Below are positions 1 to 11,143 of a DNA stretch of 11,406 nt, piece after piece. Source of the stretch: Thermoproteota archaeon. Its GTDB lineage: Archaea; Korarchaeota; Korarchaeia; Korarchaeales; Korarchaeaceae. The translations under genes and the position numbers were made by a program. The notes under the pieces were generated by a model, which saw only the letters and a program-made list of their open reading frames with translations, did no database searches and was not told where the DNA came from. Positions within the stretch are counted from its first letter, which is position 1. The number at the start of each line of letters is the position of its first letter. Location of the stretch: contig JAOZFI010000057.1 of assembly GCA_027491395.1 (NCBI GenBank), positions 1 through 11,406 on the forward strand, read 5' to 3'.

Positions 1-312
1 TACGAGGTGTTGAAAAAGGTCGCACTACCCCTCTATCAATCCCTAGGGTATGGACTTGCCGAAGTGAATAAGAGAGGCGAGGACATAGTTGTTAGAAAGT
101 ACGAAAGCATAGAATGCACCTCTCTCAAGGAAGTGCTGGAGGAGAATCCTGATCTAGTAGGGAGCAGTGAGGATGTGGGGTGCAGCATGGTGAGGGGTAT
201 AATAGAGGGCGCGGTGTCGGTGATCATGGGGTTAGAGTACGAGTCTCGTGAGGAGAAGTGCATCGCTAGGGGGGATGATCACTGTGAGCTGGTCCTCACA
301 CCTCGACGATAG
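1..312 (+). CDS. V4R (4-vinyl reductase) domain protein, 5' truncated by the window edge
   Basis: The frame is open from base 1 (TAC GAG GTG TTG...), so the true start is probably upstream. The translation has the V4R pattern GYGLAE...SIEC...CSMVRGIIEGAVS...ESREEKCIARGDDHCELVL. Stop TAG at 310-312. Confidence 0.88.
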   Translation, partial: YEVLKKVALPLYQSLGYGLAEVNKRGEDIVVRKYESIECTSLKEVLEENPDLVGSSEDVGCSMVRGIIEGAVSVIMGLEYESREEKCIARGDDHCELVLTPRR

Positions 313-338
313 GGATGAGGGATCCTCAGCGAAGGAGC

Positions 339-379
339 TGTCCTTGAAAGGTTCGAATACCGACTTTCTTTTCAGGACA
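339..379 (+). terminator. Imperfect inverted repeat with a T-rich tract; possible terminator or operator
   Basis: TGTCC(T)TGAAA at 339-349 pairs with TTTCAGGACA at 370-379. TTTCTTTT at 365-372 lies about 55 nt after the V4R stop. Confidence 0.3.
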
Positions 380-391
380 AACTGCGACATC

Positions 392-399
392 CTTAATAT
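392..399 (+). promoter_or_regulatory. Putative archaeal TATA box for the zinc-ribbon/GT2 unit
   Basis: CTTAATAT about 25-31 nt upstream of ATG 424, the most TATA-like element in this intergenic region. Confidence 0.4.
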
Positions 400-423
400 C
401 ACTCGTGGGTACGGTAAACAAGG

Positions 424-1449
424 ATGGCCGTAAAGGACGAGGGATCGGACCGAGGGAGAAACGCTCTCAAGGGAAGACTGATGAACCTAATACTTTCGGG
501 GGACCTCCAAGAACTCGTTCCGGTTTTCGATCCCGATGAGGGCTTCACCTACTGCCCCGTGCTTAGGGAGATGGGGATTCGAGATTGCGAGGGGTTGGAT
601 GATGTCCTGAGAGAGTTGACGAGAAAAGGCATCCTGAGGGCAGAGCTTCACGATAATATCGCTGTGTGCGGGAGGTGCGGTTCTCACAGGCTCATCATCA
701 GGCCTGTCTGTCCTTACTGCGGGTCGATCAACTTCAACAAGACTACGGTCATAGAGCATCTCGCCTGTGGCTATTCGGGTCCGGAGACGGACTTCAAGAC
801 CCCCAGCGGAGAGATGGTCTGTCCTAAATGCGGGAAGACGCTCAGGGCTATTGGGGTGGATTACCTCAGGATCGCCGACATCTATCTGTGCTCTGACTGC
901 GGCGAGTTCTTCTCCCTGCCCGAGCTCAAGTTCGTGTGTGCCAATTGCGGTAGGGAGAACTCCATTAAGGACCTGAGAATCGCGAGGGCGTACCGCTACA
1001 GGGTCGTCCCGGAGAGGATAAGATCTCTGGAGGAGGCGTCCTTCCTCAACGAGATGGCTGACAGGTTACTCGAACTCGGCATAACGGTAGATGGTCCGGG
1101 AGCCAAGGTGAAGGGCGTCTCGGGCATAGAGCAAGTTTTTACTTTCGTGATAAGGTCCCCAGACGAGCCGATACCTGTGGCGGTGATAGATATCGTTCCT
1201 CCCGGGAAGCAGCTGAGGGAAGAGGATCTGCTGAGGTTCTTCGCGAAGGCATTCGACGCCAACGCCAAGTACTGGATACTCGCGATCCCGTCCCCTTTGG
1301 ATGAGAGGTTGAGGGACGTTGCTCGTAGGTATGGAATTACGCTGGTTGAATCCTCAGAGCATGGGGATCTGGTCGAGAGATTGATCCGAATGCTGAGAGA
1401 GCTCATAGCTGGGGAGAGGCTCTTGGAGAAGGACCACGGTACCCCATGA
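424..1449 (+). CDS. TackOD1-like (Thaumarchaeal output domain) multi-zinc-ribbon protein with a C-terminal degenerate Mrr/restriction-endonuclease-like domain
   Basis: N-terminal PVFDPDEGFTY..L...LRELTRKGIL segment, then six metal-ligand pairs: C82GRC, C96PYC, H112LAC, C133PKC, C156SDC, C172ANC. The CPKCGKTLRAIGVDY motif is typical of TackOD1. Residues ~205-325 (LLELGITV...VKGVSGIEQVFTFVI...VAVIDI...RFFAKAFD...ARRYGITLVE) follow the Mrr-cat-like pattern. Confidence 0.8.
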   Translation: MAVKDEGSDRGRNALKGRLMNLILSGDLQELVPVFDPDEGFTYCPVLREMGIRDCEGLDDVLRELTRKGILRAELHDNIAVCGRCGSHRLIIRPVCPYCGSINFNKTTVIEHLACGYSGPETDFKTPSGEMVCPKCGKTLRAIGVDYLRIADIYLCSDCGEFFSLPELKFVCANCGRENSIKDLRIARAYRYRVVPERIRSLEEASFLNEMADRLLELGITVDGPGAKVKGVSGIEQVFTFVIRSPDEPIPVAVIDIVPPGKQLREEDLLRFFAKAFDANAKYWILAIPSPLDERLRDVARRYGITLVESSEHGDLVERLIRMLRELIAGERLLEKDHGTP

Positions 1450-1450
1450 T

Positions 1451-1456
1451 GGGGTG
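1451..1456 (+). promoter_or_regulatory. Shine-Dalgarno site of the GT2 gene
   Basis: GGGGTG 5 nt before GTG 1462, within the 12-nt gap after the upstream TGA. Confidence 0.6.
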
Positions 1457-1461
1457 TTCTC

Positions 1462-2937
1462 GTGCGGAGGATTTACCTCACCGTTGCGGCGCTCTACGTC
1501 AGTATCGCCCTGATCCCTCTGGTGATACCCGGAAGCCTCACCATAGTCTCCCTCCTCATAGCTTCGGCCCTCACTCTCTACTACTTGGCTGAGGCTTTCA
1601 GGAGGGGAAGGAAGGGCCTCAGCTTCAAGAGAGGGCTGACCGAGCTCTCCATCCTCATGGTGATCGTGCCCATCGCGTTGGCTGTCGTGGTCCTCTACGA
1701 GGGACAAGCCAAGTTTCCCGGCCTATTAAACTCCCTGCTAGCCTTTGGACTGACCCTCATAACCTGGAACTACATGCTCATGTCTCCGCTCGCCGTCTAC
1801 CACAAGTACAGAGAGCTCCAGGAGGTCGAAAGGCCTCTCCTCTACCGGCCGCTGGTCTCCGTCATAGTTCCCGCCAGGAACGAGGAGAGGACCATTGCAG
1901 CGACGATAGAATCTATCCTCGAGACCGATTACGAGCCCAAGGAGGTGATAGTAGTGGACGACGCCTCAACAGACAGGACGTTCGAGATCGCGTCAAGGTA
2001 CGTCAGCAAAAAGGTCAAGGTGCTCAGGAGGGAGCACGGAGGTAGAGGGAAGGCCCCGGCCCTGAACTTCGGCATGAGGTTCGCCAAGGGCGATGTGATA
2101 GTGGTGGTGGATGCAGATACGCTGGTGGGCAGGAGGTCCATAACCGAGCTGGTGAGGAAGTTCCAAGATCCTGAGGTCTCTGCGGTCTCGGGTAACGTGC
2201 TGGTAAGGAACAGGGTGAACCTCCTCACGAAGCTTCAGGCCATAGAATACGTTCTAAGCTTCAACTTCGCTAGGAGGGCGCTCGATGTGTTCGGCGCCGT
2301 CATGATAATTTCCGGATCATTCGGAGGATTCAGGAGAGAAGTCCTACGCTCTACCGGGATGTACGACACGGATGTCGTGACAGAGGATTTCGATATCACC
2401 ATAAAGGCGCTGAAGACGGGCAGGATAGTGCAGGCCAGCTCCCTAGCCGTTGCATTTACAGAAGTGCCAAGGAAGCTCAGGGATCTGTACAGGCAGAGGA
2501 TGAGGTGGTACAGGGGGGCCTTCGAGGTCCTCCTGAAACACAGGGACGCCCTCTTCAATCTGAGGTACGGATACCTGCAGAGGCTGGTGTTTCCTGCGTT
2601 GATCATGCAGCTCATCGTAATCCCGCTGGTGGATGTGGCTGTCCTCTTCTCCCTAGTCTTAGGCCTGATTCACGGTCGATTCATACCCCTGCTGATGCAG
2701 TTCATTCTTTTCTCCTTCATACAGTTCCTCATATTCCTCCTCTCACTGCAGATAGCCGGAGAGGAGGACATAACCCTAGCGATCCTACCCCTCTTCGTCG
2801 TCGGGTACAAGCAGATGCATGAGGCCTGGATGGTGAGGGCCCTGCTGGACACCCTCATCGCTAGGGCTAGGGGAAGGAGGTTCGAGTGGGGGGAGCTGGA
2901 GAAAGAGGGACTGGACTTCAGAAAGGGCCCCTTCTGA
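1462..2937 (+). CDS. Processive GT2 glycosyltransferase (PgaC/IcaA/cellulose-synthase-like polysaccharide synthase)
   Basis: About 4 N-terminal hydrophobic helices, then VSVIVPARNEE, VVDDAS, GKAPALN, VVDAD, SGSFGGFRR, VTEDFD and QRMRW (the complete D,D,D,QxxRW set). About 3 C-terminal hydrophobic helices and a WGELEKEG tail follow. Confidence 0.93.
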   Translation: MRRIYLTVAALYVSIALIPLVIPGSLTIVSLLIASALTLYYLAEAFRRGRKGLSFKRGLTELSILMVIVPIALAVVVLYEGQAKFPGLLNSLLAFGLTLITWNYMLMSPLAVYHKYRELQEVERPLLYRPLVSVIVPARNEERTIAATIESILETDYEPKEVIVVDDASTDRTFEIASRYVSKKVKVLRREHGGRGKAPALNFGMRFAKGDVIVVVDADTLVGRRSITELVRKFQDPEVSAVSGNVLVRNRVNLLTKLQAIEYVLSFNFARRALDVFGAVMIISGSFGGFRREVLRSTGMYDTDVVTEDFDITIKALKTGRIVQASSLAVAFTEVPRKLRDLYRQRMRWYRGAFEVLLKHRDALFNLRYGYLQRLVFPALIMQLIVIPLVDVAVLFSLVLGLIHGRFIPLLMQFILFSFIQFLIFLLSLQIAGEEDITLAILPLFVVGYKQMHEAWMVRALLDTLIARARGRRFEWGELEKEGLDFRKGPF

Positions 2938-2946
2938 TCCTAAGGA

Positions 2947-3327
2947 TTAACTTTCCCTCCACAGTCTGGCAACCTCTTCAACGAGGTCATTGTCGCCCTC
3001 CACCACCAAGTGGTTCTCGCAGGCAGCCAGCAGGTTGGCGCACAGATCCAAGTAACAAGATATGCGGGGTGACCAGAGAAGCACGATCACCCTGACCCTA
3101 TTGACTAGTGGCGTGATTATGGCCTCGAACTCCTCAAAGTCATCCGGGATGGGGAGGGTCATGTGAAGACTAGGGCCCGAGATCACCAGCCGGGCATCCG
3201 GAAACCGGTCCCTCAACTTCCTCATGAAGGAATGTATCTTCAAGAGCTCCATCTTTTTGATCTGAGAGAGCCTCAGCGGCTGCCCGGAGTTTTCTCTTAA
3301 TATGGGGATCCTCGAGCGAGATCTCAA
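2947..3327 (-). CDS. Hypothetical protein (126 aa)
   Basis: The TTG start overlaps the upstream TGA stop (TTGA, 3327-3324) with GGAGG upstream. The ORF fills the gap up to the GT2 stop and has normal composition. No family recognised; the start could instead be the internal Met of MELLK. Confidence 0.6.
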   Translation of the reverse strand: MRSRSRIPILRENSGQPLRLSQIKKMELLKIHSFMRKLRDRFPDARLVISGPSLHMTLPIPDDFEEFEAIITPLVNRVRVIVLLWSPRISCYLDLCANLLAACENHLVVEGDNDLVEEVARLWRES

Positions 3328-4325
3328 GACTTCTCCGCCTCCTCCAGCGCCCTAGTAACTGTGTTTAGGGGGTCGCCTAACGATTTGAGGAACCTCATAG
3401 CCCTACTCTCGAGCTCACCAGAGCTCATGTCCTCCAGCAGCCTATCGTAGGCCCTGATCACGGTATCCTCCCTGGCCTTAACTATCAGACCCTCCCTCAT
3501 CAGAACCTCAGTGACACACGGCTCCTCCCTAGGAAAGAGGGATATCGCTGGGATACCGAGGAGCGCCGCCTCCCTTATCATGGTCCCCCCGCCGGAGAGG
3601 ACTCCAGCGGAGGTGGAGATCAGATCCAATCCGTCGACCACGCCCTCGTATCTCGATCCGTCGGGCAGGATGATCCCGCCTTCCCTCGGCATCCTGACCT
3701 CATCCAAGCCGGTCGAACGGATTAGCCTTCTCACGGCATCCTCGAAGTGCTCCGCAACTTCTAGGTAGTGGGATCTCACGGGTGGAGGTCTGACTATGAC
3801 GTATCCCCCCTCTCTTAGCCCTAAACGCCTGTGTTCCTCCTTTGTTGGCTCCTCAAGGTAATCGAGGACGTGCGATACCTCGAAGACCCCCTTGAACCTC
3901 AGGGTGGGCCCGTAGGTCGGACCCCGGAAGCACTCCGGCACCACCGCGACGGTGGAGAGGGGGAAGGTCAGCCTGGTGATCACGTGAGGCGGCAGGTCGT
4001 TATCGTTGAGGGCAACGAACGGGATTCCGAGCCCGAAAGCCACTCTAGCCTGATCCGCCGATCCCTTGGAGGTGGCCGCACTTACACCCAGTTCATCCAC
4101 CAGCTCGGCCAGTTCCCTGACCCTCTCGGCGAAGGCCCTGAGCTTCTCCTCCTTGGTGCGGCCCCACCTGCCCACCACCAAGAAGTCTTGGCCCAGCAGC
4201 CTGCGGGCCAGTTCCACCAGAGGGCCCTTTCTCCTTACCGTCACCAGCACCTCCTGAGGGTACCTGCGGAGGAACCTCCTCCAGAGCCTGACGTGGGGCT
4301 CGTTCACCACATCTATCCACAGCAT
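3324..4325 (-). CDS. DUF354 family protein (predicted GT-B-fold glycosyltransferase-like)
   Basis: N-terminal WIDVVNEPHV, central ARVAFGLGIPFVALNDND and C-terminal VLSGGGTMIREAALLGIPAIS are DUF354 signatures. An AGGTGA RBS lies just upstream, overlapping the previous stop. Confidence 0.88.
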   Translation of the reverse strand: MLWIDVVNEPHVRLWRRFLRRYPQEVLVTVRRKGPLVELARRLLGQDFLVVGRWGRTKEEKLRAFAERVRELAELVDELGVSAATSKGSADQARVAFGLGIPFVALNDNDLPPHVITRLTFPLSTVAVVPECFRGPTYGPTLRFKGVFEVSHVLDYLEEPTKEEHRRLGLREGGYVIVRPPPVRSHYLEVAEHFEDAVRRLIRSTGLDEVRMPREGGIILPDGSRYEGVVDGLDLISTSAGVLSGGGTMIREAALLGIPAISLFPREEPCVTEVLMREGLIVKAREDTVIRAYDRLLEDMSSGELESRAMRFLKSLGDPLNTVTRALEEAEKS

Positions 4326-6798: not shown

Positions 6799-8040
6799 TT
6801 AACGCTTAGCCCTCAGCTTGGGCACGACCAAACTCGCCTCGGGCAGGACTGCCACCTTCCCGCCCACCCTAGCGAGGGCCTCGTCCAACGCCTCCTGCGG
6901 ATTGAAGAAGGGCTTGAATCCTATCCTCTCGAGAACCTCAGGGCTCAAGTCAGTGACCGCGTACACCTCCGCCTTATCCAGAAGCTCCACTATCTTCGCG
7001 GACTTGTGATAGCCGAGCCTGTAATTCTTCCAGACGTATTCCCTGATCTCCTTTCTGCTCCTCCCGGCCAGGAGGTCGTAGAAGTTTCTGGGTCCTATAC
7101 CGTCCCAGCAGGGCGCGACGAGTATGACCACGCCGCCCTCCCTCACCAAGGGCTTGGCGGCCTCCAGCGCCTTGTGGGACTGATAGAGATCTATTCCCAT
7201 CTCTCCAGGGGCTACGGTCACAACTATGTCCGCCTGCTCGGGCAGCTCCACCGAGTACCTGCTCTCCACCTCCTCGACTAGGGAGTAGAAGGAGTCGAAT
7301 ATGTTACCTGACTTGGCGGCCCACGCCCTCCCCTCCCCGGTGATGGCCACATTCAGGGAGAAGATCCTCACTCTCCCCGCTACCTTCCTGACAATCTCCT
7401 CTAAATCTTCGTGCAGTGGGTTTCCTCTGAGTCTCCCAAGGGCCGCTTCGGGAAGGAGTGCCATCTTGTGGTTCGCCTCGACGCATTCATAGGCACACAG
7501 GCCGGGTGCTATGCTCTTCCTCCCACCAGTGTAGCCGGCAAAGTAGTGGGGCTCTATCGAGCCCAAGGTAATTACAAGATCGTTTCTGAAGACTTCCGAG
7601 TTTATCAGGACGGGGGTCCCCCTCGCGGTCCTTCCCAAGTCGGTGAACTCGCTTCCCTTCGAGTCATGGTACGTCGTTACCCTTCTCAGTCTGTCGTAGT
7701 GGTGTCCCAGTATCAGCCCCCTGTACTCCTCCTCGGTGGGTGGCCTGTGTGTCCCGGTGGCGACTATGATCCTCGCGTCCCCCTCCAACCTTGGGAGGAC
7801 GTGGTCCAGCATCTTAGGAGTGGGGGTGAGTCTGGCGGAGTCGTTAACCACTATGAGCACCTTAGAAGCCCTGATCTCCTCCAACCGATCGCTGCTAACT
7901 GGAGAATCCAGTGCCTCCTCCAGCATTTCATCTACATCAACTTGGGGAGGGGCCTTTACACCGTAGACCCCCAGCAGATTCTCATCCGGGATATTGAGGT
8001 GAAGGGGCCTGTCCCCGTAGAGGATCCTCACCTTCCCCAC
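6799..8040 (-). CDS. larA: LarA-family nickel-pincer-dependent 2-hydroxyacid racemase/epimerase
   Basis: Motifs NDSARLTP, ATGTHR, EPHYFAGYTGGRKSIAPG, EANH and DLYQSHKAL match the conserved LarA Asp/Arg pair, two catalytic His, the cofactor-binding Lys, the Ni-ligand His and YQxxK. The GTG start overlaps the upstream gene by 13 nt. Substrate is not established. Confidence 0.93.
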   Translation of the reverse strand: MGKVRILYGDRPLHLNIPDENLLGVYGVKAPPQVDVDEMLEEALDSPVSSDRLEEIRASKVLIVVNDSARLTPTPKMLDHVLPRLEGDARIIVATGTHRPPTEEEYRGLILGHHYDRLRRVTTYHDSKGSEFTDLGRTARGTPVLINSEVFRNDLVITLGSIEPHYFAGYTGGRKSIAPGLCAYECVEANHKMALLPEAALGRLRGNPLHEDLEEIVRKVAGRVRIFSLNVAITGEGRAWAAKSGNIFDSFYSLVEEVESRYSVELPEQADIVVTVAPGEMGIDLYQSHKALEAAKPLVREGGVVILVAPCWDGIGPRNFYDLLAGRSRKEIREYVWKNYRLGYHKSAKIVELLDKAEVYAVTDLSPEVLERIGFKPFFNPQEALDEALARVGGKVAVLPEASLVVPKLRAKR

Positions 8041-9236
8041 AGGATCACCCCCAGAGCGAGGGAAATTATCACAGATAGAATGGAGGCAGGCACCAAGTAC
8101 TTGTAGACGCCCGAGTACCTCCCACCGTAGTGTTCCAGTGTAAGTATTAGACAGAGGTGCACTGGGGAGAGCATGACCCCTATGTAGCCCCCCGTATACC
8201 CCACCAGAAGTGCCAAGTCATTTATCGCTTTACCCGTCCCCAGCACATTTATCAGGAGGGGAAAAGCTGTTCCCGCGAACACGAACTCCCCGGCGGTAGT
8301 GGCGCCTATGACGAAGGGGAGGGTGAAAACTACGGGCATTATTGGAATACCGTGGGAGACCATGAAATTCAGGAGAGCATCGGCTGAATGGCTGTCGAAC
8401 ACGTACTGCCTGTACATCATCACGGCCACTATCACCAAGAGGATCTTGGGCGAGAGGGCGAACTTCACGCCTTCCACCAGCTTCTCCTTGGAGGGCCTCG
8501 CGTATGCTGCGGTCGCTGAGGCGGTGATCAGGAGGGCGAACTCCACCGGGAGCCTCACCACGAAGACTAGGATCACGACGAGGAGGAAGGGCCATCCTGC
8601 CACTATCAGTTTCCACCTGCTGCCAACTCTCTCCTCACAGCTCCTAGCTCTCCTCCTCAGTAATGGGTAGGAGATTATTAAGCCCGCCCCTATCGTCCCG
8701 ATCGCTGCGGGAAAGGTTGATTCTATTATCCTGACTATCGGCGTGTTTAGTATGACTGCGGTGAGTATGAGGGCCTGGAACAGGGGCCAGACGGGCACCC
8801 ATATGTGCCTGAACCAGTAGTTCAGAAAGGAGGCGAAGTCACTATCCAGCCCCTGCCTCTCCAAGTAGTGCTCCTTTAGCATCATGGCCGAAACCAAGGC
8901 GCCGCCGGGCATGGGAATGAGACCTACCAGCGATGGGACGAATATGGAGGCGAAGTTGCAGCTCAGGCTGGCGAATAGCCGGGTCATCTTATCGAGGATG
9001 CCAGCCACCTTCATCATGTAAGAGAGGAACAGGGCCGAGAAGAAGGCTATAAACAGCTTCAGAGTGGAGTAGGTGAAGATCCCCCTGACAGTGGAATCTG
9101 CCATCCCTGCCCCCAAGGTGAGCAGGCCGAACACCAAGGTGGAGGCCATTATCGCAATGTGAACCTCAAGCTTCCTAATCAGAAGTCCCACGAGTATAGC
9201 CACCGATATAGCGAAACTCAGTACGGGATCTATCAT
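8028..9236 (-). CDS. DUF401 family (TIGR00529-like) membrane protein, putative transporter
   Basis: About 11-12 hydrophobic segments with GLIPMPGGALVSA, NYWFRHIW and MLSPVHLCL. ATG 9236 (MIDPVLSF) is preferred over 9299 because GGAGGCGGGGAAGG precedes it and a TTTTAA box lies about 30 nt upstream. Confidence 0.88.
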   Translation of the reverse strand: MIDPVLSFAISVAILVGLLIRKLEVHIAIMASTLVFGLLTLGAGMADSTVRGIFTYSTLKLFIAFFSALFLSYMMKVAGILDKMTRLFASLSCNFASIFVPSLVGLIPMPGGALVSAMMLKEHYLERQGLDSDFASFLNYWFRHIWVPVWPLFQALILTAVILNTPIVRIIESTFPAAIGTIGAGLIISYPLLRRRARSCEERVGSRWKLIVAGWPFLLVVILVFVVRLPVEFALLITASATAAYARPSKEKLVEGVKFALSPKILLVIVAVMMYRQYVFDSHSADALLNFMVSHGIPIMPVVFTLPFVIGATTAGEFVFAGTAFPLLINVLGTGKAINDLALLVGYTGGYIGVMLSPVHLCLILTLEHYGGRYSGVYKYLVPASILSVIISLALGVILWGR

Positions 9237-9264
9237 CGGCCTTCCCCGCCTCCAGATACCCTTT

Positions 9265-9272
9265 CTTAAAAT
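9265..9272 (-). promoter_or_regulatory. Putative TATA box for the DUF401-larA operon
   Basis: The minus strand reads ATTTTAAG about 30 nt upstream of ATG 9236. Confidence 0.45.
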
Positions 9273-9444
9273 CGTTGACTTGCTGACGTCTTCACCCATA
9301 GGCCCTGTCGACGGTGCAGCTGTTTCGTCGGAGGGATACGGATGCAGGTCCTAAAGCTTATCCGATCTTTCTAAGCACTCCAATCCCGGGAATACCTTTG
9401 TATGATCCGGTTGTCCTGAGGATGTCTTCTTAGAAATCCAGGCA

Positions 9445-9610: not shown

Positions 9611-11143
9611 ATGATGGAAAACCCCTCTTTAATAGTATACGTATACAGGGGAGGGCAAAAGTGGTCAAGGTTCCACACTGCCAGGGGAATAGTTGAGACT
9701 TCGATTCCCTTCATAGCTGACGTGGTCAGCCTCCTCGGCTCCCCTAGGGTCAAGGTCCTCGTGTTCGTTCCCCACTGCATCGCAAAATTGAGGGAGCTCA
9801 GGGATCTCGACGGCTTGGTGGAGAGGATCAGAGATGAGATTAGGAACGTGCTGAGAATGAGCAGATTGAACGGAGAACCGATAGATGGGATATTCAAGGA
9901 GAAGTACGGTAGGTCGTTGATGGCCGAAACTCGGGTGGTTCCCTTGGAGTGCACCGGCAGGTGTGAGATCGACGGTGAAGTAGTGGAGTTCCAAGGAGAT
10001 CTGCTATGGATGGCCCTCAGGATCATGCTGTTCTTGGAGGACGAGCTGAGGGACTTGCCATCCGAGAAGCTCCTCCTAGTGGATCTGAGTGGTGGTGGAA
10101 TTTATCACGCTCCGGTTTACGCTGCCTCAAACTTGGTAAGCGCCTCATACCCAGAGGTGTCCATGAGGTACGTTTACTGGGAGGGTTCCCCCACACTGGG
10201 CAGGCCAGAGACAAATGGAAGGATGGTGGTCAGGGGGGCTGAGGAGCTCCTGACCGTGGTGAATCTTCTAGCCGCCCTCTTGAAGGGATGTCCGGGTGAA
10301 CCTATCCATGCACTGCCGGATCTTGTGGACAGGTTGAGGAGAACCGAACTGGGGGAGAGGGCTGCAGTTGGATTACTCTCGATGGTTGGGGTGGTCTGTG
10401 GTCTCAAGCTCCCGATACTGCCCCTAGCACATCTCTCGATCCTTGAATTGATGAGGACGGAGATCCCTTACATTAGGGATCCGTTGGATTTGGAGATGAA
10501 CGTTGAATTGTTTAGGTACGATATCTGGACGGTGAGATACGTTTACCGCTCCTTCGGGACGGAGCTGGATGATCCCTTGGTCGCTCTGATGATCGCCGCT
10601 ACATCATACGCTAAGGAGAGGGTTCGGGAAATGGGGATCGTCCCCTCAATAGAGGAGTTCGAGATCGTGGACAGGCTCACGGGTAAAAAGCTTCGGCTCG
10701 CGGATATGAGTTGGGAGTGGCTGGAACTGATCAGCGATTTCCTCTTGGAGAATGGGGCCCTTACTCAGCTCGCTACGATATGCGTCCACCTAGGTCCACT
10801 GTTGGATATTTGCAGGGAGAACTTGGGCTTTCGCAACTCCACGGGAATGAGGTACGACGAACTATGGAAGCTGTCTAGGGAGGAAGGGATTTCGTTACTT
10901 GCAGATCTGCTCGAGAGGAACGAGATGGCTGAGGACCTCATGGATGAGATGAGGGAAGTGATGAGAGATCCCTCGAAGGTGATGGAGATGAGGGAGATCA
11001 TTGTTTCCTCAGCTGGACTGTCTCTTCCTCTCGTGTACCTTATACACGCCCTCGACAGGGGTGTGGAGTTCCTTTACGTGGTGGACCTTGTCAGGAAGTT
11101 GAGGGGGCCCTCCTCAATTGTTTTCCTGTGCTCCCTCCGATGA
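9611..11143 (+). CDS. Divergent Csx1-like CARF-HEPN protein with degenerate motifs
   Basis: Colinear with archaeal Csx1 as recalled. LIVYVYRGGQKW ~ LVxxWGxPxxW. KVLVFVPHCIA ~ ILILVxDTxA. VVPLECTG...VEFQGDL ~ VxVLPGxG...xFxGxx. LLVDLSGGGIYHAP ~ VYLDLTHGINFMP. MRYVYWEGSP ~ xxxxNSEPYP. The C-terminal MREIIVSSAGLSLPLVYL...VEFLY ~ RNFIAHxGFxxNxVxV...LxFxY. Length is similar. Confidence 0.65.
   Translation: MMENPSLIVYVYRGGQKWSRFHTARGIVETSIPFIADVVSLLGSPRVKVLVFVPHCIAKLRELRDLDGLVERIRDEIRNVLRMSRLNGEPIDGIFKEKYGRSLMAETRVVPLECTGRCEIDGEVVEFQGDLLWMALRIMLFLEDELRDLPSEKLLLVDLSGGGIYHAPVYAASNLVSASYPEVSMRYVYWEGSPTLGRPETNGRMVVRGAEELLTVVNLLAALLKGCPGEPIHALPDLVDRLRRTELGERAAVGLLSMVGVVCGLKLPILPLAHLSILELMRTEIPYIRDPLDLEMNVELFRYDIWTVRYVYRSFGTELDDPLVALMIAATSYAKERVREMGIVPSIEEFEIVDRLTGKKLRLADMSWEWLELISDFLLENGALTQLATICVHLGPLLDICRENLGFRNSTGMRYDELWKLSREEGISLLADLLERNEMAEDLMDEMREVMRDPSKVMEMREIIVSSAGLSLPLVYLIHALDRGVEFLYVVDLVRKLRGPSSIVFLCSLR

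Follow-up and report, generated by a model that had tools for sequence, protein, structure and literature searches.

Conserved pairing of TackOD1 zinc-ribbon proteins with processive GT2 synthases in archaea and bacteria: a candidate means of exopolysaccharide control

Introduction

We analysed an 11,406 bp stretch of DNA, referred to here as the window, that is the entire contig C39 of archaeal genome G000 (1.72 Mb, 62 contigs, 53% G+C). The contig opens with three genes, all on the + strand, encoding a fragment of a V4R protein, a TackOD1 zinc-ribbon protein and a family 2 glycosyltransferase (GT2) related to exopolysaccharide synthases. We find that TackOD1 and GT2 genes occur side by side in two archaeal phyla and in bacteria. 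The pair is an old, mobile module, with TackOD1 as its constant part, and is very probably a real functional unit. The chances seem evenly balanced that TackOD1 is a constant output module coupling variable sensors to the synthase, probably via direct contact.

In the searchable text of two papers the function of TackOD1 (arCOG06883) is called obscure, and its occurrence in type IV pilus loci is reported (Galperin et al., 2018, PMC5847659; Makarova et al., 2016, PMC4858521). Stand-alone TackOD1 is listed beside REC-TackOD1 in the same text of PMC5847659. The latter, with a receiver (REC) domain, is the architecture behind the domain name, and is listed for Nitrosopumilus koreensis in a supplement. 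The word 'glycosyltransferase' stands nowhere with TackOD1 in the searchable text and supplements of either paper (one supplement file of PMC5847659 is unsearchable). The literature on TackOD1, PF18551 and arCOG06883, as far as its text was searchable, gave no report of a synthase link beyond the pilus loci of these papers. Searches on archaeal biofilm, exopolysaccharide, glycosyltransferase and zinc ribbons found nothing relevant, and those on poly-N-acetylglucosamine or PgaC in Thaumarchaeota found general mentions only. The links to GT2, CE4 deacetylase and V4R genes, the bacterial fusions of the cyclic di-GMP (c-di-GMP) type and the three-part anatomy reported below appear to be undescribed.

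Results

The window encodes a TackOD1 protein and a processive-type synthase

Ten window proteins were scanned against Pfam hidden Markov models (HMMs). The V4R, TackOD1 and GT2 domains named by a first-pass annotation, which had been made from the letters of this DNA, were all recovered. The TackOD1 protein (341 amino acids (aa); gene at 424-1449, + strand) matched PF18551 over residues 14-194 with an E value of 1.1e-41 (142.9 bits; cut-off 32). The six metal-ligand pairs seen earlier are real. They are C82/C85, C96/C99, H112/C115, C133/C136, C156/C159 and C172/C175, and all are invariant or at least 90% conserved across 106 relatives. Both the Pfam family and the published pattern of 11 conserved Cys, arranged as five CxxC and one HxxC, are those of TackOD1/arCOG06883. 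The Pfam scan found no REC domain in the window protein, nor any other recognised ligand-binding or receiver domain; REC forms are present among its relatives. PilZ (PF07238) was matched neither in this protein nor in the synthase, which had rightly been described as having no PilZ tail.

The synthase matched PF00535 (E 1.8e-38), PF13641 and PF13632. Its closest curated family is PgaC/IcaA (TIGR03937, E 2.8e-58), with a score of 197.8 bits that lies below the membership cut-off of 422.3. The D, DxD, ED and QxxRW motifs and hydrophobic flanks of a processive membrane GT2 are all present, the hydrophobic ends being read from sequence only. The first Asp motif reads VVDDAS. Across 30 relatives D217, D309 and Q345-R346-x-R348-W349 are invariant, with D219 and E308 nearly so; the earlier description of intact D,D,D,QxxRW motifs is therefore correct. 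Profile matches in the Protein Data Bank included hyaluronan synthase (E 2.4e-28) and BcsA (E 6e-27). No PgaD/IcaD-type or deacetylase match to Pfam was found among the ten window proteins. CE4 deacetylase genes adjoin the orthologous GT2 in loci L040, L071 and L098 and in those of the family of genome G053. Because of the PgaC/IcaA affinity of the synthase, and these CE4 neighbours in other lineages, the polymer is probably based on N-acetylglucosamine (GlcNAc) and, in many lineages, partly deacetylated.

TackOD1 and GT2 genes are linked in the phylum of the window

We searched a collection of 43 genomes of this phylum. A true TackOD1 match was present in 23, and 15 of these had the TackOD1-GT2 pairing. 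In 14 (G000, G002, G012, G006, G011, G007, G016, G015, G017, G013, G024, G022, G045 and G047) a TackOD1 gene shared a contig with a match to the GT2 of the window, the two being no more than ~1.5 kb apart. In G018 the pair is split by a contig end. The TackOD1 gene is at a contig end in G005 and G031, and in G048 the pieces are on two contigs. There was no GT2 neighbour in G049, G051 (which has stop codons), G046, G030 or G025. Close GT2 orthologues (E<1e-100) were confined to TackOD1-bearing genomes except for G001, in which a contig end truncates the gene.

The flanks of the pair are of three types. ACT-V4R and DUF505 genes are found in the clade of the window. In G013, G016 and G017 the flanks are EamA, HMG-CoA reductase, two tandem TackOD1 genes and an MBL gene. 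The third type is KaiC/EF-Tu-like; the order in G022 is TackOD1, a 286-aa gene, ACT-V4R, GT2, TackOD1 and KaiC. No Pfam family was found for the 286-, 281- and 214-aa genes of the G022, G048 and G024 clusters. Tandem TackOD1 paralogues upstream of one synthase occur in G013, G016, G017, G007, G005, G018 and L101. The tandem copies that precede the single synthase in L025, L026, L027, L101 and others are diverged, with ~31-45% identity to the window protein. Separately, genus g3 has a 778-aa GHL13 and GH114 glycoside hydrolase (L029:9918-12251 in G022; L043:11558-12305 in G049) at a distance of ~3.5 kb from its TackOD1 locus; this enzyme could act on the polymer.

Two contexts of TackOD1 in a second archaeal phylum

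PF18551 was matched in 229 of 401 genomes sampled of a second archaeal phylum. Among the matches listed (the best 150 of 336) we took the best hit per genus for 60 genera; 10 further genera were left out. At each locus, 6 kb on either side was taken, open reading frames (ORFs) were called and scanned with HMMs, and context was read within four ORFs of the central TackOD1. Type IV pilus genes only were present at 33 of the 60 loci, which confirms the published pilus linkage. A synthase-type GT2 was present at 16, one of which also had a pilus ATPase. ACT-V4R only and KaiC only were each seen once, and nine loci had none of these contexts.

All 17 GT2 proteins of the 16 GT2 loci have QxxRW. In 10 of these loci TackOD1 is directly upstream and co-oriented, and the spacing ranges from an overlap to a gap of 47 nt. 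Other neighbours are CE4 deacetylases (L071, L098) and Ras-like GTPases. The latter (L068:6171-6764 and L078:6542-7267), Ras-family small GTPases in two families of this second phylum, are encoded directly upstream of TackOD1-GT2, in the place that ACT-V4R has in the window's locus.

Context is clustered on the TackOD1 tree. In a quick maximum-likelihood tree of 80 proteins, from which three rows under 290 aa were left out, one half has 27 GT2-linked and 6 pilus-linked members, and the other has 30 pilus-linked and 4 GT2-linked members. GT2 or pilus context requires a minimum of five switches on this tree, and 500 shuffles never gave so low a count with either label.

We also took the reverse view, using a GT2 search profile built from TackOD1-linked synthases. 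Of the best 86 GT2 rows in the same 401 genomes, 52 were within 4 kb of a listed TackOD1 match and 10 were not; 24 were undecided among the matches listed. Four of the 24 were read and are unlinked (L109, L110, L115, L120).

In the Nitrosopumilus-like family of G053 the order is GT2 (608-797 aa), CE4 deacetylase (640-905 aa) and REC-TackOD1 (307-345 aa) in four of seven loci read. GT2 and TackOD1 are within 3.5 kb in 9 of the 14 genomes of this family common to both lists. This gene order suggests that Nitrosopumilus-type ammonia oxidisers may place a GlcNAc-polymer synthase and its deacetylase under two-component control. In G104 (G104:C1:1198461-1200017) the adjacent GT2 and REC-TackOD1 genes both have in-frame stop codons, and may be decaying together.

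Bacterial relatives carry PilZ, REC and GGDEF fusions

The window TackOD1 protein matched three bacterial records, from metagenome-assembled genomes of Colwellia, Pirellulales and Oscillospiraceae. In Colwellia the order is HlyD-like, TackOD1 (E 2.7e-52), GT2 and REC-GGDEF-EAL. In Pirellulales a REC-PilZ-TackOD1 gene overlaps the start of the GT2 gene; PilZ is precomputed in 8 of 120 listed homologues of this protein. At the Oscillospiraceae locus we saw neither GT2 linkage nor such a fusion.

Among Planctomycetota, 18 of 201 genomes have TackOD1. A C-terminal GGDEF domain was found in 16 of the 17 proteins scanned, five of which also have REC, and a GG[DE]EF-like motif in none of the 14 tested. 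By synthase HMM, GT2 is present at 7 of the 18 loci (L135 was judged by coordinates), and OEP (TolC-like) and HlyD-like genes are also neighbours. Throughout L128-L141 the motif-less TackOD1-GGDEF gene is beside genes for OEP, of 670-1020 aa, and HlyD-like proteins, often with GT2. This looks like an undescribed bacterial cluster for polymer synthesis and export. The linkage first noticed in the window is thus conserved in two archaeal phyla and in bacteria. The first-pass annotation had named, as a result that would refute its reading, a lack of conserved linkage of TackOD1 homologues to GT2 or V4R genes; the surveys clearly contradict such a lack.

TackOD1 is a three-part protein

With a profile built from 24 relatives we retrieved 3318 cluster representatives at E<=0.001, of which 1196 were at E<=1e-30. 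Alignments of the best 150 run mostly over profile positions ~10-320; the Pfam model spans just the first 188 positions. Hence, a two-part architecture of ~330 aa is the standard TackOD1 form. An AlphaFold model made from 106 sequences had a mean predicted local distance difference test score (pLDDT) of 93.4, and residues 1-80 modelled alone had 95.6. As modelled, a winged-helix lobe comes first, then three zinc ribbons, and last an endonuclease fold that is probably inactive.

In the VIA search residues 1-80 most resembled winged helix-turn-helix (wHTH) domains from regulators of the GntR/FadR type, with Z of 6.0-6.6 and no match reaching 8; the wider set comprised GntR/FadR, PadR and Fur regulators at Z 5-6.6. 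Foldseek with the lobe model returned nothing at E<=0.001, and the VIA search gave no informative match for the zinc-ribbon part. The lobe has a median net charge of -3 and is positive in 20 of 77 sequences. Its helix 3 is mostly net acidic, with no conserved basic residue.

Residues 197-335 matched AF1548 (1y88) with Foldseek (E 4.7e-4) and with VIA (Z 10.6, root mean square deviation 3.8 over 115 residues). Further VIA matches were VC1899 (1xmx; Z 10.8) and Can2 (Z 10.0), and the family profile matched AF1548 by sequence at E 3.9e-5. This domain is net acidic in most relatives and positive in 16 of 106. In the AF1548 alignment a hydrophobic residue replaces the Lys of ExK across the family, and T240 of the window protein is at the position of the first Asp. 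The PD-(D/E)XK domain is therefore probably not a nuclease; an active nuclease or defence gene was rejected because the catalytic D...(D/E)xK residues are missing. Neither this third domain, nor the ACT domain of the V4R protein, nor the pilus loci as majority context of the sampled TackOD1 genes had figured in the first-pass annotation.

We scanned 34 long TackOD1 representatives, archaeal and other; 12 have REC and 19 have Mrr_cat. No Pfam family was found in the N-terminal extensions of the 497-519-aa proteins of L052, L075 and L106. REC-PilZ-TackOD1 and the REC-TackOD1 of the G053 family have no counterpart of the first 30-50 model positions, which correspond to the winged-helix lobe, and are still beside GT2. 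A conserved 223-aa protein (G000:C43:10518-10814; orthologues in G002, G006, G010 and G012) is a distant paralogue outside the GT2 locus. Its TackOD1/double-zinc-ribbon match is weak, at ~29-35 bits.

An ACT-V4R gene lies upstream and is probably transcribed separately

The 103-aa V4R fragment matched PF02830 at 38.5 bits (E 1.2e-9; cut-off 31), with three Cys in the matched stretch. Since the window is a whole contig, this gene is cut by the contig end. The missing flank was recovered from contig C27, the start of which overlaps the window start by ~156 nt at ~88% identity. C27 supplies the N-terminal part, which encodes an ACT domain; next come another ACT-V4R gene and, in divergent orientation, a DUF505 gene. 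The same order is seen in the complete loci of G002, where TackOD1 is 90% identical, and G012. Full-length orthologues of 278-279 aa have ACT and V4R domains, with weak XylR_N matches; the MsvR NCBIfam score of the V4R protein is 26.8 (cut-off 220). By comparison with these loci, the window V4R protein is taken to be one of a tandem ACT-V4R pair, ~275-300 aa each, with no DNA-binding domain. Window positions 1-160 and G000:C27:1-160 are near-identical but non-identical copies of one ACT-V4R gene, and strain heterogeneity probably split the assembly here. Both G002 and C27 have toxin-antitoxin genes (HepT, PIN, MazE) at a distance of a few kb.

V4R is upstream of TackOD1 in G000, G002, G012 and G006, and directly upstream of GT2 in G022 and G048. 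Species of the G013/G016/G017 type have the pair and no V4R beside it. In G013 and G016 ACT-V4R genes are elsewhere, beside Lon-like and saccharopine dehydrogenase genes.

The features of the locus are collected in Table 1. Within the 111-nt gap ahead of TackOD1 there is an inverted repeat (339-350/368-379) and a T-rich tract at ~365-373. A TTAATAT box at 393-399 is ~28 nt ahead of the TackOD1 ATG. The box and the T-rich tract are common to four aligned species, all of which also retain sequence blocks in the stretch from this TATA-like box to the ATG. These features suggest a terminator for V4R and a promoter dedicated to the TackOD1-GT2 operon. With the T-rich tract and conserved TATA-like box in this gap, TackOD1-GT2 would be its own transcription unit, from which V4R is probably separate.

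The TackOD1 and GT2 genes are 12 nt apart, as first annotated; in relatives the spacing ranges from an overlap to a gap of 47 nt. The spacer has GGGGTG 5 nt ahead of the synthase GTG start. The first-pass annotation placed a ribosome-binding site here, a role that is no more than plausible for this motif. The short spacer with its GGGGTG suggests that GT2 translation is coupled to that of TackOD1.

Table 1. Features of the TackOD1-GT2 locus at the start of the window.
Feature	Position	Strand	Evidence
ACT-V4R protein, C-terminal 103 aa (candidate small-ligand sensor)	1..312	+	PF02830 E 1.2e-9; open-ended frame
Intergenic region, 111 nt	313..423	+	Alignment of four species, repeat search, sequence
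TackOD1 residues 1-80, winged-helix-like lobe (inside Pfam TackOD1 model)	424..663	+	AlphaFold models; structural matches
TackOD1 residues 81-184, three zinc ribbons: five CxxC pairs and one HxxC pair	664..975	+	PF18551, PF12773; conserved ligand columns
TackOD1 residues 197-335, PD-(D/E)XK (restriction-endonuclease-like) fold, probably catalytically inactive	1012..1428	+	Foldseek, VIA, profile match
Spacer, 12 nt	1450..1461	+	Sequence; holds GGGGTG
GT2 synthase, membrane-embedded, processive-type, 491 aa	1462..2937	+	PF00535, PF13641, PF13632

Other genes of the window

The genes downstream of GT2 are convergent with it and encode a 126-aa ORF, DUF354, DUF389, a LarA-like protein and DUF401. 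The DUF354 gene, of a family of obscure function, and the family-less 126-aa ORF overlap by 4 nt at 2947-4325 (- strand). DUF354 and DUF401 also adjoin the MBL-GT2-TackOD1 cluster in G016 and G015 (L026, L030), and may mark a wider conserved neighbourhood. At 6799-9299 (- strand) the LarA-like racemase gene, with a best match to malate racemase family LarAH6 (323 bits, below the cut-off of 500), overlaps a DUF401/TIGR00529 membrane-protein gene by 13 nt; the two may be a transporter-racemase pair. A 510-aa ORF at 9611-11143 (+ strand) has no Pfam or NCBIfam match, and is conserved and syntenic in G002 (L023:7-1539).

Discussion

How TackOD1 might control the synthase

The locus can be read as a two-gene operon, in which a cytoplasmic TackOD1 protein would be translationally coupled to a PgaC/IcaA-like synthase, with the ACT-V4R pair just upstream. 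The signal inputs to TackOD1 would differ between lineages. They would be separate ACT-V4R proteins at the window's locus, a fused REC in the Nitrosopumilus-like family, and fused REC, PilZ or motif-less GGDEF in bacteria. Neighbouring Ras-like GTPase or KaiC genes may serve elsewhere. As the likeliest mechanism, the zinc-ribbon module would dock directly on the cytosolic face of the synthase and turn polymerisation on or off, akin to PilZ in BcsA, PelD with PelF and PgaD with PgaC. Paralogues linked to pili would act on the type IV pilus machinery instead.

Contact between the two proteins, and the direction of control, are what we infer from four observations that favour direct control. First, TackOD1 is fused to PilZ and GGDEF. 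Second, forms with no lobe keep their GT2 linkage. Third, the pair has moved as a unit between domains of life. Fourth, the 'recognition' helix is acidic and poorly conserved. The analogy with c-di-GMP-controlled synthases drawn in the first-pass annotation fits the bacterial PilZ, REC and GGDEF fusions.

That annotation also had the V4R protein feeding TackOD1. This is a credible input, judged from neighbourhood, and whichever small ligand the ACT-V4R proteins might sense would then set the signal. The recurrence of ACT-V4R in independent arrangements argues for the link. Most loci, on the other hand, have no V4R gene, for which reason we rejected an obligatory partnership. Adjacency in some loci is likewise to be set against the G013/G016/G017 pair, which has no V4R, and the probable separate transcription of V4R in the window.

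Several observations weigh against dedicated, direct control of the synthase. The family is not specific to synthases, since pilus loci hold most of the sampled TackOD1 genes (33 of 60). Moreover, the survey took the best-scoring listed hit per genus and the GT2 profile came from TackOD1-linked synthases, so that both counts favour this clade. Fourteen GT2 genes of the clade (the 10 above and the four that were read) have no TackOD1 nearby, and 20 remain undecided. Relative orientation varies, being convergent in L077, L082, L093 and L105 and divergent in L128 and L131. V4R accompanies the pair in a minority of cases, namely 6 of the 23 TackOD1-bearing genomes of the window's phylum, in two arrangements, and 4 of the 16 GT2 loci of the second phylum; the 33 pilus loci have no V4R gene. 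None of the 34 long TackOD1 forms is fused to GT2, pilus ATPase or KaiC. Some relatives have extra helix-turn-helix or helix-hairpin-helix domains (AsnC-type in L032, TrmB in P0051, HHH_5 in P0150), and the window protein itself combines a lobe resembling a DNA-binding wHTH with a nucleic-acid-enzyme fold at its C-terminus. Finally, a complex prediction for GT2 and TackOD1 from alignments scored 0.02, against a mark of 0.32, and gave no support for binding; we draw no conclusion from this score.

A broader statement of direct control can be offered tentatively, as a possibility. TackOD1 would be a post-translational docking module of archaea and bacteria that switches GT2 synthases in one subfamily and type IV pili in the other. 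In archaea it would be the functional counterpart of bacterial PilZ adaptors, working without c-di-GMP, and one input could stand in for another: ACT-V4R sensors of metabolites or redox state at the window's locus, and REC, Ras-like GTPase or KaiC elsewhere.

Other explanations

It is also conceivable, although we think it doubtful, that TackOD1 is a DNA-binding transcription factor for the adjoining GT2 or pilus operon. It would bind by its lobe, zinc ribbons and dead endonuclease fold, and be modulated by ACT-V4R, REC and the like. The wHTH matches of the lobe (GntR/FadR, PadR, Fur), the PD-(D/E)XK fold and the AsnC-type, TrmB or HhH additions are all in keeping with this. REC-TackOD1 also looks like a typical response regulator in the accessible text of PMC5847659, and a transcription factor could explain why a single family, in varying orientation, accompanies two unrelated machineries. 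The blocks conserved in four species between the TATA-like box and the ATG would fit such a role. However, the lobe and the endonuclease-fold domain are mostly net acidic, helix 3 offers no conserved basic residue, and the structural matches of the lobe are all below Z 8, with none from Foldseek at the threshold used. REC-PilZ-TackOD1 and the REC-TackOD1 of the G053 family remain beside GT2 with no lobe at all. Archaea and bacteria alike keep the two genes together, and bacterial relatives are fused to PilZ or motif-less GGDEF. Modules of the PilZ and degenerate GGDEF type usually act on enzymes, not on DNA.

Less probable still is a constitutive role for TackOD1, as an accessory or assembly subunit of the PgaD or IcaD kind. 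It would serve stability, zinc-dependent folding or placement of the synthase or the pilus machine and relay no signal, with nearby sensor genes being coincidental or acting elsewhere. The tight coupling of the genes would suit such a subunit, as would the window protein's lack of a recognised input domain and the loci without V4R, and tandem paralogues before one synthase suggest a hetero-oligomer. The repeated fusions to REC, PilZ and GGDEF speak for signalling instead, as does the recurrence of ACT-V4R, Ras-like GTPase, KaiC and REC-GGDEF-EAL neighbours, and 14 synthases of the clade have no TackOD1 nearby.

That the adjacency is meaningless, or that TackOD1 is a working nuclease from some defence or mobile element that happens to accompany the glycosyltransferase, is very improbable: the restriction-endonuclease fold with its weak Mrr_cat matches, and the nearby HepT, PIN and MazE genes of G002 and C27, are outweighed by linkage in three phyla with differing flanks, by the clustering of context on the tree, by the replaced catalytic Lys and first Asp, and by the GGDEF domain that replaces the endonuclease fold in bacterial members.

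Implications

Since 2018 TackOD1 has counted as an output domain of response regulators with an obscure function; pairing with a synthase gives it a specific, testable job. The anatomy of the family is also redefined, with a winged helix and three zinc ribbons ahead of a dead endonuclease fold. Little has been described of how archaea control exopolysaccharide and biofilm production after sensing a signal, and a pairing conserved in two archaeal phyla and in bacteria is a concrete lead. If TackOD1 does dock on the synthase, signal-controlled synthesis of biofilm matrix in TACK archaea would have its first described route.

Comparison with known systems

PgaC-PgaD and IcaA-IcaD are poly-beta-1,6-GlcNAc synthases that need a small partner encoded alongside, and their deacetylases are PgaB and IcaB. 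The system described here is similar in its closest curated family, in the partner encoded beside the synthase and in CE4 as a frequent third gene in relatives. It differs in its TIGR03937 score, which is below the cut-off, and in the partner, a soluble 341-aa zinc protein rather than a small membrane protein; nor does the window's system have any known involvement of c-di-GMP.

Exopolysaccharide synthases are switched by c-di-GMP receptors, such as the PilZ domains of BcsA and Alg44 and PelD with its degenerate GGDEF. PilZ proteins serve both synthases and type IV pilus ATPases, a split that matches the two contexts of TackOD1. Bacterial TackOD1 is likewise fused to PilZ or motif-less GGDEF, beside GT2, HlyD-like and OEP genes. 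Conversely, the window protein has neither PilZ nor GGDEF, and the dead endonuclease fold stands in that place.

V4R sensors include MsvR and XylR/DmpR/PoxR. The proteins described here share with these a V4R domain with a Cys cluster. They differ in having an N-terminal ACT domain and no DNA-binding or AAA+ domain.

Fusions of REC to GT2 are mentioned for Methanobacteriaceae (MTH_548) in the searchable text of PMC5847659. As far as that text describes them, these are also archaeal BcsA-like GT2 proteins under receiver control. There the receiver is fused straight to the synthase, whereas in the system described here a separate TackOD1 protein would stand between input and synthase.

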